Source: Candidatus Wukongarchaeum yapensis
GTDB lineage: Archaea; Asgardarchaeota; Wukongarchaeia; Wukongarchaeales; Wukongarchaeaceae
Assembly (NCBI GenBank): GCA_016840425.1
Contig: JAEOSI010000139.1
Span: forward strand, 1 to 6,193
DNA length: 6,193 nt
Direction of reading: 5' to 3'
Shown piece by piece: positions 46 to 6,112 of the stretch (position 1 is the first letter of the stretch; every line of letters begins with the position of its first letter). The notes under the pieces were generated by a model. It was not told where the DNA came from. It made no database searches and saw only the letters and a program-made list of their open reading frames with translations. A program made the position numbers and the translations under genes.

Positions 46-489
46 TTAAGCCCATTCTTTTAGCCAAGAACAGTTATGTTTTTCTAAAGTGAGATGCTCT
101 TTACAAAATTTCCGACCGCAATAGTTACAAAAACGGACAAGCCCTGTCCTTCTACAAACCTCACAAGTACCGATTTGGCCGATGTCTTCTTCAGGCGGTA
201 TTTTTAGCACTATTTTTGGCTTAGTTTCCTCTACAACCCTTCTACTTGCCATGGATTCTCTGAATACTGGGCCCGTTTCTCGATAATATCTTCTAACAGG
301 CTCACGTTCTACAAGTTCGAAGCGTCTTATTAAGAGTACAGCAACTAAAGTAAAAAGGCCAAGAAAAAGGGTGGCAAAATCTCTATCAATAATATCTTTC
401 TCTGTCATATAAGCTAGCAAAACAAGCCCACTCACATAAAGCAGAGACAAAGCCAAGGTAATAATCCTGAAATCTCTTTTAAAAGCCAT
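46..489 (-). CDS. Small membrane protein with two N-terminal TM helices and a C-terminal AN1-type zinc finger
   Basis: ATG at 489-487, TAA at 48-46. Hydrophobic stretches at about aa 9-27 (IITLALSLLYVSGLVLLAY) and aa 38-54 (FATLFLGLFTLVAVLLI). The C-terminal CEVC-x8-CNYC-x4-C-x2-H-x5-H-x-C (aa 109-140, nt 165-70) matches AN1 zinc-finger spacing. Confidence 0.88.
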   Translation of the reverse strand: MAFKRDFRIITLALSLLYVSGLVLLAYMTEKDIIDRDFATLFLGLFTLVAVLLIRRFELVEREPVRRYYRETGPVFRESMASRRVVEETKPKIVLKIPPEEDIGQIGTCEVCRRTGLVRFCNYCGRKFCKEHLTLEKHNCSWLKEWA

Positions 490-533: not shown

Positions 534-705
534 TTGGTTATAACTTAATCTACCCAATCCTTTTCATAATCATGTTTTTCCTCTTATTTTAAATATTTTT
601 TATATTGTTTAATAGCTAAATATGCTTATAAAATTTTAACATAAATGTATAAGTTTAAGTAGTAATGGAGAAGAAAATACCTTATTTATATTTTTAATTG
701 TTAGA

Positions 706-742
706 AAAATCGCAAAAGATTATTTAAGGATTTCGCGATTTT
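706..742. promoter_or_regulatory. Putative symmetric (bidirectional) archaeal core promoter: inverted BRE-like arms around one TATA-like core
   Basis: The + strand reads CGCAAAAG-ATTATTTAAG and the - strand reads CGCGAAAT-CCTTAAATAA. Arms AAAATCGCAAAA (706-717) and TTTCGCGATTTT (731-742) are inverted repeats at 11/12 positions with a 13-nt spacer. Confidence 0.5.
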
Positions 743-847
743 CTCAATATTCATCAAAAAATTTAAATAAAGAGGTGTTCTCCATAATTATGGGAATGCC
801 ACCTTTAAGGTGGAAAATACCAAACGCCAAGCCGCCAGCCGACCCCA

Positions 848-880
848 AAAAAGGATTGATCGAAAAGATCGATCCTTTTT
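848..880 (+). repeat. 14-bp inverted repeat / stem-loop with GAAAA loop
   Basis: AAAAAGGATTGATC-GAAAA-GATCGATCCTTTTT gives 13 Watson-Crick pairs and one T-G wobble on the + strand. Confidence 0.85.
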
Positions 881-943
881 CCCAATTTCCTTGTTTTGTT
901 TGTCGGTTAGGCCTGTCGGGGGACTTCCTTCTAGGTTTTGGTT

Positions 944-969
944 GGGGGCCTTTGGGGAGGGGAAGGGGG
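944..969 (+). other. Putative G-quadruplex-forming sequence
   Basis: GGGGG-CCTTT-GGGG-A-GGGG-AA-GGGGG has four tracts of at least 4 G with loops of 5, 1 and 2 nt. A further G5 lies at 918-922. Confidence 0.6.
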
Positions 970-982
970 CTAGGCTCCCTCC

Positions 983-1024
983 AAATGCCTCTAACCTCTC
1001 TTAAAATGCCTCTAACCTTTCTCA
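983..1024 (+). repeat. 21-bp tandem direct repeat, two copies
   Basis: AAATGCCTCTAACCTCTCTTA (983-1003) and AAATGCCTCTAACCTTTCTCA (1004-1024) are 19/21 identical, with the first 15 nt exact. Confidence 0.9.
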
Positions 1025-1255
1025 AAACTTTGATTTATGGTGGTTTTTATGTTTTTAAAGGTTTATCTTTCTTTTAATGTTTTTATGCAGTAGTTTGCTT
1101 TCTAAATATTTTGTTTTTTTGTTTATGATGTTAGTTTTATTTTTTCATTTTCTCCCTTTTGATTTTTTAAAGATGAGTGTTTTTTATTAATCGTCTGATC
1201 TTTAATAATTAGTTTTTTATATTTTTTTTAGGTGGTTTTTTTGAGCGTGGAGTAG

Positions 1256-3634
1256 GTGGCTTTTATAGAACATCCGTTAATAAAACCTGAAAAGATAGAG
1301 GTTAGACGGTTTCAAGAAACTATTTTCGCAAGAGCTGTTAAGGGTAATACGCTTGTTGTGCTTCCAACGGGTTTGGGTAAGACTTTTATTTTAGTCCTTG
1401 TGGCAGCTCTTCGGTTGCAACTTTATGGAGATGGGTTTGTTTTAATTTTGGCCCCTACTCGGCCTCTTGTGTTACAGCACAGTTCTACTTTTCGTGATGT
1501 TTTAGCTTTAGATGAGGGTAAAATTGTTGCTGTTTCTGGGCAAGAGCGTCCTGCATCTCGGAGTAAGATCTATTCGGATGCTAAGGTTGTTATCGCTACG
1601 CCTCAAACGGTTCAGAACGATATTATTAGTGGAAATTTAAGACTTGAAAATTGTGTTTTGTTGGGTGTTGATGAGGCTCATCGAGCAGTAGGAGATTATG
1701 CTTATGTGTTTATAGCGGAAAGATATGTTAACATTAGCAAAAATCCTCTTATTTTTGGGATTACCGCTTCTCCTGGCTCTGAAGAGGAGAAGATTCGTGA
1801 AGTTTGTAATAATTTGTTTATTGAGCAGATAGAGGTTAGAAGTGAACAGGACGCTGATGTAAAGCCTTATGTTCAAAGGATTGATACTGAATGGGTGCGT
1901 GTTGAACTACCGCCTAAATTTAAGCGTATTTTAGAGTTATTAGAAACCGCTTTAAAGCGCCGTTATAAGGAATTAAAGTCGGGAGGATTTTTGAACAGCG
2001 CTAACGTAAAAGAAGTAAAACTCAGCGATCTTTTAAAACTTCAAGGAAAAATCGGGAGCGAAATTTCCCAAACCATTGATTTTAACTCAAAAAAAGAACT
2101 TTTTAACGCTATTTCACTAGAGGCAAATTGTGTCCGTTTACTTAGAGCTCATGAAACCGTTCAAACCCAAGGCATTACACCCTTTTTACGGTATATGAAT
2201 GGTTTGCTAAAGCAGTCAAGGAAAAAGGGTTCTTCACGGGGTTTAAAACAGCTTGTAAATGAACATGAAGTCAAGGAAGCCGTATTTCTTGCAGGAGAAC
2301 TTGAAAAAGAAAAAGTTCTACACCCAAAAGTGAACAAGGTTATAGAAATAGTGAAAAAAACCCTTAAGAGTTCTTCTACCTCCCGGGTTCTGATTTTTTG
2401 CCAACTTCGTTCAACCGTTTCCGTTATCGAGAAAATCTTGATTGAAGAAGAAGTTTCTGCAAGCCGATTCCTAGGACAAGCTAAGAGGGAAAATGAGAAA
2501 GGACTTACCCAAAAGGAGCAAAAAGAGATTTTGGAGAATTTTAAACAAGGAAAAATTAGCGCCCTTGTAGCTACAAGCGTTGCTGAAGAAGGACTTGATA
2601 TACCCCAATGCGACCTCGTTATAATGTATGACAGTGTTCCCAGCGCCATACGCGCTATCCAACGACGCGGTAGAACTGGAAGAGTTCAGGCAGGCAAGGT
2701 GATAATCCTTATCGCAAAAGACACAAGAGACGAAGCATATTATTGGGTTAGCAAACGTAGAGAAGCGAAAATGAACGCCATTCTAAAAACCCTTCAAAAA
2801 ATGAACAAAGAACTTGCCGAAAAGAAACAAAAATCTTTAGAAGAATTCCTTGAAAAAGAAGAAGAGAAACCAGTAAAAATAATGGAATCAGTTTCAAGCA
2901 AAGAAACAGAAAAACTTCCAGAACAATTAGGACATATTACAAATAATCAAAAAGCAGAAGAAAAAGAAAAAGTAGAAGAGGGGGAGAAGGAGGTAGGGGT
3001 TATCATTGACACTCAAGAACTCTCTTCTACAGTGGCCAAAGCTTTAGCCCGTTTAGATTTAAAAATTCAAGTAAAACGCTTGAGTGTAGGAGATTATGTT
3101 GTTTCTGACCGTGTCGCCATCGAAAGAAAAGAAGTAGGAGATTTTTTAAACTCTATAACCGATGGTAGGTTATTCCAGCAAATAATTGACCTAAAAAATA
3201 GCTTTTCAAAACCCATTCTTCTCCTTGAAGGCGAAGAACTTTATTCTAAAAAAGCCATAAATCCCCAAGCAATATATGGTGCAATAGCAAGCATTGCAAT
3301 AGACTTTGGAATTCCCATACTTTGGTCAAAGAGTGGAGAAGAATCAGCCCTTATAATTAGTACCATAGCAAGAAGAGAGCAGCTGGAGAAGGAAAGAACT
3401 ATTATTATGAGGCATGAAAAACCTGCTGTCGATGAGGATGAAAAGCAAAAATTTTTGGTTGCTGGTTTGCCGAACATTGATTCCGTCCTTGCTACAAGAC
3501 TTTTAGAAACGTTTGGAACCCCCCTCGATGTATTCAATGCAGATGAGGAAATGCTCCAAAAGGCGAGAGGTATTGGACCGAAAACAGCAAAAATAATAAG
3601 AAAAATACTTACAAGAAAATTTGCTGAAAAATAA
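1256..3634 (+). CDS. hef: Hef (FANCM/Mph1-like) DEAH-box SF2 helicase fused to ERCC4/XPF endonuclease and HhH2 domain
   Basis: GTG start preceded by GGAG (1249-1252). Walker A LPTGLGKT, motif Ia APTRPLV, motif II DEAH, motif III TAS, motif V ATSVAEEGLDI and motif VI QRRGRTGR are present. A charged low-complexity linker is followed by the ERCC4 core GDY...ERK-x3-D (GDYVVSDRVAIERKEVGD) and a C-terminal tandem HhH (GLPNID...GIGPKTA). The N-terminus FIEHPLIKPEKIEVRRFQ is typical of archaeal Hef. Confidence 0.95.
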   Translation: MAFIEHPLIKPEKIEVRRFQETIFARAVKGNTLVVLPTGLGKTFILVLVAALRLQLYGDGFVLILAPTRPLVLQHSSTFRDVLALDEGKIVAVSGQERPASRSKIYSDAKVVIATPQTVQNDIISGNLRLENCVLLGVDEAHRAVGDYAYVFIAERYVNISKNPLIFGITASPGSEEEKIREVCNNLFIEQIEVRSEQDADVKPYVQRIDTEWVRVELPPKFKRILELLETALKRRYKELKSGGFLNSANVKEVKLSDLLKLQGKIGSEISQTIDFNSKKELFNAISLEANCVRLLRAHETVQTQGITPFLRYMNGLLKQSRKKGSSRGLKQLVNEHEVKEAVFLAGELEKEKVLHPKVNKVIEIVKKTLKSSSTSRVLIFCQLRSTVSVIEKILIEEEVSASRFLGQAKRENEKGLTQKEQKEILENFKQGKISALVATSVAEEGLDIPQCDLVIMYDSVPSAIRAIQRRGRTGRVQAGKVIILIAKDTRDEAYYWVSKRREAKMNAILKTLQKMNKELAEKKQKSLEEFLEKEEEKPVKIMESVSSKETEKLPEQLGHITNNQKAEEKEKVEEGEKEVGVIIDTQELSSTVAKALARLDLKIQVKRLSVGDYVVSDRVAIERKEVGDFLNSITDGRLFQQIIDLKNSFSKPILLLEGEELYSKKAINPQAIYGAIASIAIDFGIPILWSKSGEESALIISTIARREQLEKERTIIMRHEKPAVDEDEKQKFLVAGLPNIDSVLATRLLETFGTPLDVFNADEEMLQKARGIGPKTAKIIRKILTRKFAEK

Positions 3635-3830: not shown

Positions 3831-3895
3831 TTCTTTATAAAAAAGATAAAAAAAGCATTTTGCCCAAGAATTTATTAATAAGGAAGTTGGATATT

Positions 3896-6112
3896 ATGAC
3901 CTTGCTTGCGTCTAAAGAAAGGGAAGGGGCTTTAGAACTGTTACCAAAAGTTAGGAGAAGTGACGGCCAAATACTGCCTTTCGATGAAAAGTTTATCGTG
4001 GAATCACTTCTCCGAGAAACAAGTCTTGCAGAAGAAATTTACGGGTGCGCTCCTATAACTAGAAAAGAGGCCAAAGAAGTAGCAGGTGACGTGAAAGAAG
4101 AAATTAAAAGATTAAAATTAGAGTTCTTATCAGGCCCACTAATTCGGGAGCTTGTCTGTGTGAAACTCCTAGAAAAAAGCAGCGAAGACAAAAAATATGC
4201 ATGGTACAGAAACTGCATAACTAGGGTAGGTGTACCTCTCCACGAACTATACCTCATGGATAAAAGCGCCGGATATGAAGCAAGAGAAAACGCTAACCTC
4301 CAACCAAACCCTGAAAGCATACACAAAAAGAAAGCAGACATGCTCTCAAAAGAAGCCTATTTCCTCCTAATACCACCCAGATTAGCAGACGCCCATCTCA
4401 AAGGAGACATCCATATCCACGACCTAGAATATTTTGGAACAAGGCCTTTTTGCCAAGACCACGACCTAAGATACTTCTTCCGCTACGGTCTCCTCTCAGA
4501 CGGAAGAGGCGTTCAAACAAGCGTAGCCGGACCAGCAAAACACGCAGAAGTAGCCATCCTCCACGCAGTAAAAGTACTAGCAAGCGCACAAACCAATTTC
4601 GCAGGAGGCCAAGGCCTATATGGCTTCACATACCTCGTTGCTCCATACCTCTCTGGACTAAACTATAAACGCATAAGACAACTCTCACAAATGTTGCTTT
4701 TCGAGTTGTCAGAGAGCTACGTAGCAAGGGGCGGTCAGCTTGTTTTTAGTTCTATACAGATTGAGAGTGGCGTTCCGAAGATATGGAGAGACGTACCTAT
4801 CGTAAAAGCGGGAAAGGTTGGTTCTGAGACCTATGGAGATTTTGAAGAAGAAACAAATCTTTTTGCAAAAGCTCTCTTAGAGGAGTATCTTAAGGGTGAT
4901 TATCGGGGGAAAATGTTTCCCTTCCCAAAGCCAGAGATTGCCTTAAGACCCTATTATTTCAAGAAACCAGAGTATAAAGAGGTCTTGGATCTTGCTGCAG
5001 AACTTAGTGCAAAGTATGGCACTAGTTACTATGATAATATGATACCGGAATATCGTGGTGGAGAGGATGGGGTTTCTTGTTATCAGTGTTGTGCTTATAA
5101 TTTCTCAGAGGGGCCTAATAGTGAGGGTTTCGAAGATAGGCTCTATTTTAATGATGGAGACCATTTTTCAATGGGTGGCATGCAAGTTGTAACCATTAAC
5201 ATGCCAAGGCTTGCTTTCGAAGCTAATGGAAATGATGACCTTCTTTTTGAAAAACTTAGGGAGCGTATGGAAATTGCAAAGGAGATTCACTTGCTTAAAA
5301 GAAGTCTCATATTCACTCAGGCAGAAAACGGGTTGATACCTTTTGCTACTCAGCGGCCTAATGGTGCTCCTCCAGCCGTGAATCTTGAAGGATTGGCTTC
5401 CACTATAGGTACAATTGGAATGAATGAGCTTGTACAGCATCATATGGGAGAAGAGCTTCATGAGAGTGCTGACGCTTTAAGGTTTGCTATAAAAATTGTT
5501 ATTGAGATGGGGAAAATAGCACAAGAGTTTGAGGAGGAAACGGGTGTTTCTTTTGCCGTCTCCAGAACTCCCGCAGAAAGTGCTGCTCAAAGGCTTGCTG
5601 TTGCTGACCTAATTCACTACCCAGAAATAGCGCATAAATATGTTAAGGGAGACTTAAATGGTTGGCGTGAAAAAATACAAGTTTCAAGGGATCTCCCCGT
5701 TTACTATACCAATGGTTGTATGGTAAATCATAGTGCTCCAGTGCCCTTGTTTAAGCGGATGAATATTGAGCAAAAATTCTTTCCAGCCCTTAGTGGAGGA
5801 AACATTTTTCACGCATGGTTGGGCGAAGCTTACCCGAATCCGGACGCTTTAGCCAAGTTAAACGAAAAAATTGCTAATCAAACATGGATAGGTTACTTCA
5901 GTCACACCAAAGATATCAGTGTCTGTAATAACTGTAGCCAAGTTTATTCAGGATGGATTGAAACATGTTTCAATTGTAAGTCAAGAGATATAACCTCGTA
6001 CAGCAGGATAACTGGCTATTATCAGGCCGTTCACGCTTGGAATGAGGGTAAGAAGCAAGAACTAAGGGACAGATACAGGACAAAAGTTTCCGACCTACTA
6101 CCTGACTTATAA
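3896..6112 (+). CDS. nrdD: Class III (anaerobic, glycyl-radical) ribonucleoside-triphosphate reductase with N-terminal ATP-cone
   Basis: The ORF is open from TTG 3860. ATG 3896 is preferred because it follows purine-rich AGGAAG (3881-3886) and the extra 12 codons look non-conserved. Motifs: ATP-cone (LPKVRRSDG...F...SGPLIRELV), GDIHIHDL, PFC (Cys codon 4451), finger-loop YQCC (5081-5092), RTPAES, Zn site CNNC/CFNC, and glycyl-radical motif YSRITGYY (Gly codon 6014-6016). Confidence 0.96.
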   Translation: MTLLASKEREGALELLPKVRRSDGQILPFDEKFIVESLLRETSLAEEIYGCAPITRKEAKEVAGDVKEEIKRLKLEFLSGPLIRELVCVKLLEKSSEDKKYAWYRNCITRVGVPLHELYLMDKSAGYEARENANLQPNPESIHKKKADMLSKEAYFLLIPPRLADAHLKGDIHIHDLEYFGTRPFCQDHDLRYFFRYGLLSDGRGVQTSVAGPAKHAEVAILHAVKVLASAQTNFAGGQGLYGFTYLVAPYLSGLNYKRIRQLSQMLLFELSESYVARGGQLVFSSIQIESGVPKIWRDVPIVKAGKVGSETYGDFEEETNLFAKALLEEYLKGDYRGKMFPFPKPEIALRPYYFKKPEYKEVLDLAAELSAKYGTSYYDNMIPEYRGGEDGVSCYQCCAYNFSEGPNSEGFEDRLYFNDGDHFSMGGMQVVTINMPRLAFEANGNDDLLFEKLRERMEIAKEIHLLKRSLIFTQAENGLIPFATQRPNGAPPAVNLEGLASTIGTIGMNELVQHHMGEELHESADALRFAIKIVIEMGKIAQEFEEETGVSFAVSRTPAESAAQRLAVADLIHYPEIAHKYVKGDLNGWREKIQVSRDLPVYYTNGCMVNHSAPVPLFKRMNIEQKFFPALSGGNIFHAWLGEAYPNPDALAKLNEKIANQTWIGYFSHTKDISVCNNCSQVYSGWIETCFNCKSRDITSYSRITGYYQAVHAWNEGKKQELRDRYRTKVSDLLPDL

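Follow-up and report, generated by a model that had tools for sequence, protein, structure and literature searches.

The contig analysed here raises the question of what occupies the 766-bp spacer that separates a zf-AN1 gene from hef, where a block of GC-rich sequence stands inside AT-rich DNA. The window, meaning the whole stretch of DNA that was analysed, is an entire 6193-base contig (C141) of a 2.16-Mb metagenome-assembled genome (G000), which is 92% complete. It contains three genes, a zinc-finger gene, hef and an NrdD gene, arranged as follows:

46-489, minus strand: zf-AN1 gene, the divergent neighbour; its product has 147 aa, is hydrophobic in the N-terminal half and carries an AN1-like zinc finger at the C terminus
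1256-3634, plus strand: hef, with DEAD/Helicase_C, ERCC4 and HhH domains; it adjoins the RNA candidate and is not part of it
3860-6112, plus strand: NrdD gene, downstream of hef

The zf-AN1 neighbour gene is conserved and syntenic in all relatives. In its product, the AN1-like zinc finger (26.6 bits, slightly below the Pfam cut-off of 27.9) comes after two hydrophobic stretches that resemble membrane segments, and an AN1 finger combined with a membrane anchor seems unusual.

As the initial annotation had reported, the GC-rich block is set off clearly from its AT-rich flanks. The island at about 790-1030 has a GC content of 49-51% inside a spacer of 17-26%, and in 100-nt windows the GC fraction is 0.41-0.60 between 751 and 1050 versus 0.17-0.26 on either side. 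The matched core (792-1009) has 51% GC, with a genome mean of 0.38. Two further features described in the initial annotation were also recovered. A 14-bp stem-loop (848-861/867-880), consisting of 13 Watson-Crick pairs and one G-U pair, is nested in longer pairing (834-843/902-912 and 829-833/934-938), and a tandem repeat with a period of 21 was placed by the repeat-finding tool at 970-990/991-1011 (76%), the best register by inspection being 983-1003/1004-1024, where 19 of 21 positions are identical. Furthermore, G-runs are located at 918-922, 944-948, 954-957, 959-962 and 965-969. On balance we slightly favour the explanation that the island is a free-standing, single-copy, lineage-specific structured ncRNA gene found in one genus of Hodarchaeota (Asgard archaea).

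Homologues of the island are confined to close kin in one genus. These include the other genome of the same genus (G001), which is sister to the genome of the window, a metagenome contig with a Hef 88% identical (L019), two G001-like contigs (L085 and L090) and several strains of the window's own species (L086-L089 and L103). All relatives have the gene order M50 peptidase, zf-AN1, island, hef, nrdD in common, and synteny with hef, which the initial annotation had named as a point to be checked, was found throughout, the island occupying the same place in every relative found. On a 103-kb contig of the window's species (L103), the order extends to thermosome, RNase HII, trm1, ftsJ, gar1, M50 peptidase, zf-AN1, island, hef, nrdD. 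This contig carries no transposase gene around the island, and neither an orc1/cdc6 nor an integrase gene within 10 kb of it. The gar1 gene (L103 7518-7820), which encodes an H/ACA RNP protein, is located 1.2 kb upstream of the zf-AN1 gene and is clustered with trm1, ftsJ and an RsmB-like gene, placing RNA-modification genes near the RNA candidate; we take the closeness of gar1 to the island to be a coincidence.

The island is present in one copy in G000 and one copy in G001, as determined with blastn, a covariance model and nhmmer at maximum sensitivity. A MITE or other interspersed repeat, one of the options offered by the initial annotation, was rejected on this single copy number in both genomes of the genus and on the lack of any likeness elsewhere in the genome. 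Outside the genus, the covariance model R1, which was built from three near-identical sequences and therefore has little reach, found no match among 151 Asgard genomes from 27 families. R1 with laxer filters also found no match in 40 relatives, and with filters off it detected no such island upstream of hef in three other Asgard families. A blastn search of 40 relatives identified no wider homologue. An exact 20-mer scan of genome contigs retrieved only G001 and one bacterial contig without a model match, whereas the same scan of viral contigs retrieved none, and blastn against phages and plasmids found nothing similar. Among 5.8 billion proteins and metagenomes, Hef identity is 88-100% in the carriers of island homologues and then falls straight down to 47% or less, and as there are no relatives at intermediate distance, a wider covariation sample is absent. 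As far as present data reach, the element appears to be restricted to the genus.

The proposed gene and its surroundings comprise the following features, of which the helices are predicted:

706-742, plus strand: inverted repeat with arms AAAATCGC ... GCGATTTT, 21 nt apart, 20-55 nt upstream of the TATA box
756-769, plus strand: putative archaeal promoter, an A-rich BRE-like stretch followed by the TATA box TTTAAATA
792, plus strand: likely transcription start (G), at the 5' limit of an RNA-library contig and in agreement with the TATA spacing
799-813, plus strand: hairpin H2, CCACC / GGUGG with a 5-nt loop; the stem is invariant and the loop reads UUUAA, GUUAA or UUAAC
829-938, plus strand: 5' multi-helix domain, closed by 829-833/934-938 and 834-843/902-912
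939-997, plus strand: 3' rod-like hairpin of about 25 pairs, with G-runs in its 5' arm
983-1024, plus strand: 21-nt tandem duplication of two units, the first of which is the 3' arm of the rod
1025-1146, plus strand: U-rich tail with T5-T7 tracts at 1044, 1052, 1080 and 1114 and a T6 tract at 1140-1145
1147-1255, plus strand: spacer with more T-tracts and a TATA-like box at about 1213-1226, without cover by the RNA library

The promoter-like element noted in the initial annotation ahead of the block corresponds to a consensus archaeal TATA box, TTTAAATA at 762-769. The box ends 23 nt before position 792 and its centre lies 26.5 nt before it, which is the usual archaeal distance between TATA centre and transcription start. 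In the relatives, the TATA box reads TTTAAAAA or CTTAAAAA. The right arm of the upstream inverted repeat and the following 10 nt (TTTTCTCAAT) show no variation in any relative, and the 20-mer at 729-748 occurs only once in the genome. This inverted repeat may represent a binding site for a transcription regulator.

The public runs listed comprise 21 data sets, one of which is an RNA library (X20, a leaf-litter metatranscriptome), and contigs from this library and from DNA runs were compared with positions 400-1500 of the window. The family is represented in studies of mangroves, marshes and estuary sediments. X20 gave exactly two contigs on this stretch, 792-955 and 963-1146, which are 95-99% alike and align over their full length without overhangs, and neither neighbouring gene is covered. 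The 163-nt contig aligns in its entirety and begins at 792, and the 3' limit of the other, at 1146, is 1 nt past the T6 tract at 1140-1145. Three DNA runs cover the whole stretch from 400 to 1500, and their contigs continue past 792. The X20 contigs are unstranded, of low depth (about 4x) and derived from a single metatranscriptome whose library could hold DNA, and the missing X20 cover over 400-791 and 1147-1500 is not evidence of silence. The cover extends 110 nt into AT-rich 3' sequence, and the coding genes, which are richer in GC, have none; this is not the pattern expected of PCR bias or DNA carry-over.

In the proposed model, transcription would start at G792, 26.5 nt past the centre of the consensus TATA box, and would yield an RNA body extending from 792 to about 1000 with a short 5' hairpin, a junction domain enclosing the 14-bp hairpin and a rod of about 25 pairs. 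A U-rich tail would follow the body, and termination would most likely occur at one of its oligo-T tracts, as such tracts are an archaeal termination signal. If the contig end at 1146 marks the 3' end, the primary transcript would measure about 355 nt.

The island shares its strand with hef and in every case immediately precedes it, and the X20 contigs reach 110 nt past the folded body toward hef. Together with the fair conservation of the spacer at 1036-1200, this would suit a hef mRNA whose long, structured 5' leader is mostly attenuated at the oligo-T tracts, making a short 5' product abundant. We regard such a leader as unlikely, as ten T5-T8 tracts intervene between the RNA body and hef, and a separate TATA-like box, located about 33 nt before the hef start, is probably the promoter of hef itself. 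Hef is without X20 contig cover, the contigs ending 110 nt before it (read-through is possible at such depth), no Rfam riboswitch or leader matched, and in the other Asgard families searched hef has no such island ahead of it. The T-tracts, the TATA-like box and the contigs that stop short of hef thus favour a separate gene over a leader or attenuator.

The T-rich stretch at 1036-1200 is as conserved as the folded body (about 81% of columns invariant) and contains an invariant block, UAUGCA-N5-UUUGCUUUCUAA, at about 1083-1106. This conservation could reflect a part of the RNA or the control of hef. In the tail, 18.8% of columns are variable versus 24.5% at four-fold degenerate sites.

The free-standing RNA gene is further supported by the predicted fold, whose stability is confined to the plus strand. 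Relative to dinucleotide shuffles, the plus-strand fold has z-scores of -2.68 in G000, -3.78 in G001 and -4.78 in L019, and is more stable than all but one of 200 shuffles in G000 and than every one of the 200 in either relative, whereas the minus strand has a z-score of 0.04. The fold contains many G-U pairs and is therefore strand-specific. The predicted consensus structure consists of eight helices. The domain at 829-938 contains the 14-bp hairpin (848-880), a variable linker (881-901) and a small hairpin (918-931), and most indels fall into the linker at 884-900, with the loops also accepting indels.

Substitutions in the island appear to be distributed according to the predicted pairing. 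In a comparison of three species-level variants, variation was seen in 16 of 138 paired columns versus 27 of 82 unpaired columns (p = 2e-4), a contrast that uses the structure predicted from those sequences themselves. Of the 155 four-fold degenerate sites in hef, 38 are variable; paired columns vary about half as often (p = 0.006), and the variation of unpaired columns is no different from that of the four-fold sites. Changes in stems are nearly all wobble-compatible (A-U to G-U or G-U to G-C), those in the rod being mostly from G-U to A-U or G-C. Across the alignment, 95-96% of cells are paired, and one pair has changed on both sides. In the covariation check suggested in the initial annotation, this one double change is equalled by shuffled alignments in 346 of 500 and 257 of 500 cases, and covariation among these close homologues is not significant. 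The overall identity of the island is 84-89% versus 83-85% at third codon positions of hef, and conservation as such probably says little.

The second unit of the 21-nt duplication is found only in the window's species, with one unit missing in G001, L019 and L090. Two polymorphisms in the second unit, C1009U and U1011C, would still pair with the 5' arm of the rod, so either 21-nt unit could close the rod.

The four or five G-runs and a perfect GATC-rich palindrome at 848-880 are also what a DNA-level G-quadruplex or cruciform would offer, with a role in replication, in recombination or in controlling a promoter beside a FANCM-like helicase gene. When quadruplex energies are allowed for, the minimum-energy fold of the G000 sequence contains a four-layer quadruplex. 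The folds of G001 and L019 contain none. Position G956 is an A in G001, L019 and L090 and in the same-species strains L086-L088, changing run 2 to GGAG. The G-run cluster of the initial annotation is thus present at 918-969 and not conserved. G956A breaks G-run 2 and keeps the pair with U in the rod, and selection therefore appears to retain the hairpin and not the quadruplex. A DNA element of this kind is very improbable, the fold being strand-specific (z = 0.04 on the other strand) and no orc1/cdc6 gene lying nearby. The replication or recombination cis-element that the initial annotation had listed among its options is likewise unsupported, given a structure on one strand and no orc1/cdc6 or integrase gene within 10 kb.

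On the pattern of change among its relatives, the island is judged to be non-coding. In this genome, an open frame of 100 codons extends from 775 to 1077, and gene callers assign 0, 39, 82 or 95 aa to the island in different contigs. A small protein or short hydrophobic peptide, encoded by an ORF of 95-100 aa (from 775/790) or of 23-30 aa (AUG at 985/1006), would account for these calls and for two 1-nt indels in G001 that by inspection restore the frame of the short ORF, and is nevertheless scarcely credible. The long frame stops at codon 6 in L019 (by eye) and at about codon 32 in G001 (ORF end L010 1272), and is also broken in same-species strains; 1-nt indels shift the frame even within the species, and indels are not multiples of three. 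For the short hydrophobic ORF, whose AUG lies in the 3' arm of the rod, the 11 changes relative to L019 fall 4/3/4 on the codon positions, one codon of eight is synonymous, and L019 runs into another frame (by inspection). Pfam yielded no match on the island on either strand. Apart from translations of this locus itself, phmmer against 1.84 billion proteins retrieved a single low-complexity repeat protein. A small-ORF or type I toxin-like reading of the U-rich tail was rejected as well, since the frames of the relatives differ.

Rfam searches at gathering scores returned no match to the island, and relaxing the cut-off to E <= 10 added nothing above chance level (mir-326, RsaE, PreQ1 and others). 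The search that the initial annotation had proposed thus matched no family and gives no known element. Its visual impression that tRNA, SRP RNA and RNase P RNA are absent was borne out by ARAGORN, which predicted 0 tRNA or tmRNA genes in the window, by the lack of Rfam matches and by genuine genes elsewhere. RNase P RNA (RF00373) was rejected as an identity, the genome's copy being located on contig C123 (184.6 bits) with no match in the window. For SRP RNA (RF01857), no SRP-clan match was detected in 480-1300 at E <= 10, and none was found in the genome's own assembly. The latter absence raised the possibility that the island is itself the SRP RNA, and the two are indeed alike in size, in forming a GC-rich island in AT-rich DNA, in the rod-like helix and in single copy number. 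This identity was dropped because G001 holds a canonical SRP RNA on another contig (C81:1178-1492, 164.6 bits) in addition to the island, which is therefore not SRP RNA. The SRP RNA model finds no match in this 92%-complete assembly and one in each of the 12 relatives searched, the sister included, and the SRP gene of this genome is probably on an unassembled piece.

Guide RNAs of the box H/ACA type were rejected after inspection of the fold, as the rod has no large internal loop and neither domain is followed by an ACA, and Rfam contained no H/ACA match. Box C/D RNAs were rejected because the AUGAUGU at 1125 and the CUGA at 1196 are mutated in G001 and L019 (AUAAUAU and UUAG, respectively). 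No Rfam aptamer or riboswitch matched. Genome-wide, the longest antisense targets of the invariant segments measure 12-14 nt (E >= 0.09), which is at chance level. The island shares conserved pyrimidine-rich stretches (CUUCCUUCU and CUCCCUCC) with the C-rich sRNAs RsaE/RoxS (RF01820), which mask ribosome-binding sites. However, the corresponding cmscan row is weak (16.4 bits and E = 5.9, where the gathering score is 79), and the C-rich parts of the island are mostly stem-paired and not presented in loops.

The 2.16-Mb genome contains 31 matches to TnpB/Cas12f-like zinc ribbons (e.g. C275:1613-1810 and C134:5781-5972), several of them in short or interrupted frames, and carries a heavy IS200/IS605-type load. 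The island resembles the omega-RNA/HEARO scaffolds carried by protein-less IS200/IS605 elements (PATEs) in its GC-rich, folded form, its size of about 200 nt, a putative promoter of its own and its occurrence in a TnpB-rich Asgard genome, but differs from them in its single copy and fixed position, in being unlike any TnpB locus and in lacking an Rfam HEARO match. An IS200/IS605 omega-RNA or PATE was rejected, as no match was found in 12 TnpB loci with filters off, genome-wide or with Rfam HEARO. A related reading sees in the island a young, lineage-specific, functionless insert that is transcribed by chance, for example what is left of a protein-less IS200/IS605-type element with its guide-RNA scaffold, now fixed, or part of a gene that has been lost. 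The abundance of TnpB zinc ribbons, the restriction to one genus, an overall conservation near neutral and the varying copy number of the internal 21-nt unit are consistent with it. It is nonetheless doubtful, as the island is single-copy with nothing comparable in the 12 TnpB loci or the genome (nhmmer, covariance model), holds a stable position in a housekeeping neighbourhood without transposase or integrase, has stems that evolve more slowly than four-fold sites, and has no protein-level relative and no phage or plasmid match.

The undescribed ncRNA, one of several options in the initial annotation, is the one favoured by the promoter distance, the contigs at 792-1146, the strand-specific fold, the slow evolution of the stems and the lack of a conserved ORF, and we infer that the island functions as an independent RNA. 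Orphan intergenic sRNAs are known from RNA-seq in Methanosarcina, Haloferax and Sulfolobus. The island is similar to such archaeal sRNA genes in having a putative BRE/TATA promoter of its own, an intergenic location, a probable oligo-U end, no Rfam family and a narrow range. It is larger and far more structured than most of them, with a body of about 230 nt and a tail of about 120 nt, a search for target complementarity found none, and its expression is seen only in one environmental library. Like OLE, ROOL, GOLLD and raiA, it is a structured RNA recognised first from sequence, although those RNAs are larger and show strong covariation over many species, whereas the island is known from one genus and its covariation is not significant.

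With respect to function, a protein-bound regulatory or scaffold RNA seems most likely, in which the stable body would protect the RNA and the U-rich tail would be suited to Sm-like proteins. A catalytic or guide role appears less likely. We give very little credence to a more specific scenario, in which a functional regulatory RNA specific to Hodarchaeota, with a G-rich rod that alternates between a hairpin and, in some strains, a quadruplex, is tied to genome maintenance and either controls the adjacent FANCM-like hef and nrdD genes or responds together with them. If true, DNA-damage control would include an RNA layer in the archaeal lineage considered closest to eukaryotes.

Few known archaea are as closely related to eukaryotes as the Hodarchaeota, and a search of a literature collection found no paper describing their non-coding RNAs. 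A transcribed, folded, single-copy and uncatalogued RNA would extend their ncRNA repertoire, and the island is something definite that northern blots or RNA-seq could look for in the new Hodarchaeales cultures. The weight of the finding is kept modest by the narrow range of the island and its non-significant covariation. The initial annotation had ranked the island as the best candidate for a new system, which is overstated; a lineage-specific archaeal ncRNA gene is a modest RNA candidate and not a new kind of system.

Two further observations concern the borders of the spacer. Positions 596-700 of the window show only 45-52% identity to the sister species, far below that of the hef four-fold sites, and this difference probably stems from replacement or indel reshuffling and not from pointwise drift. 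At the other end, the hef start in this genome consists of GGAG, 5 nt and then GTG (1256). In G001, L019 and L090, 9-10 nt are absent just upstream of the hef start and the aligned codon is CTG (regions compared: window 1226-1262, L010 about 1570-1600 and L019 about 2480-2505). Gene callers differ on the length of the hef product, which they give as 760, 792 or 817 residues for one gene.
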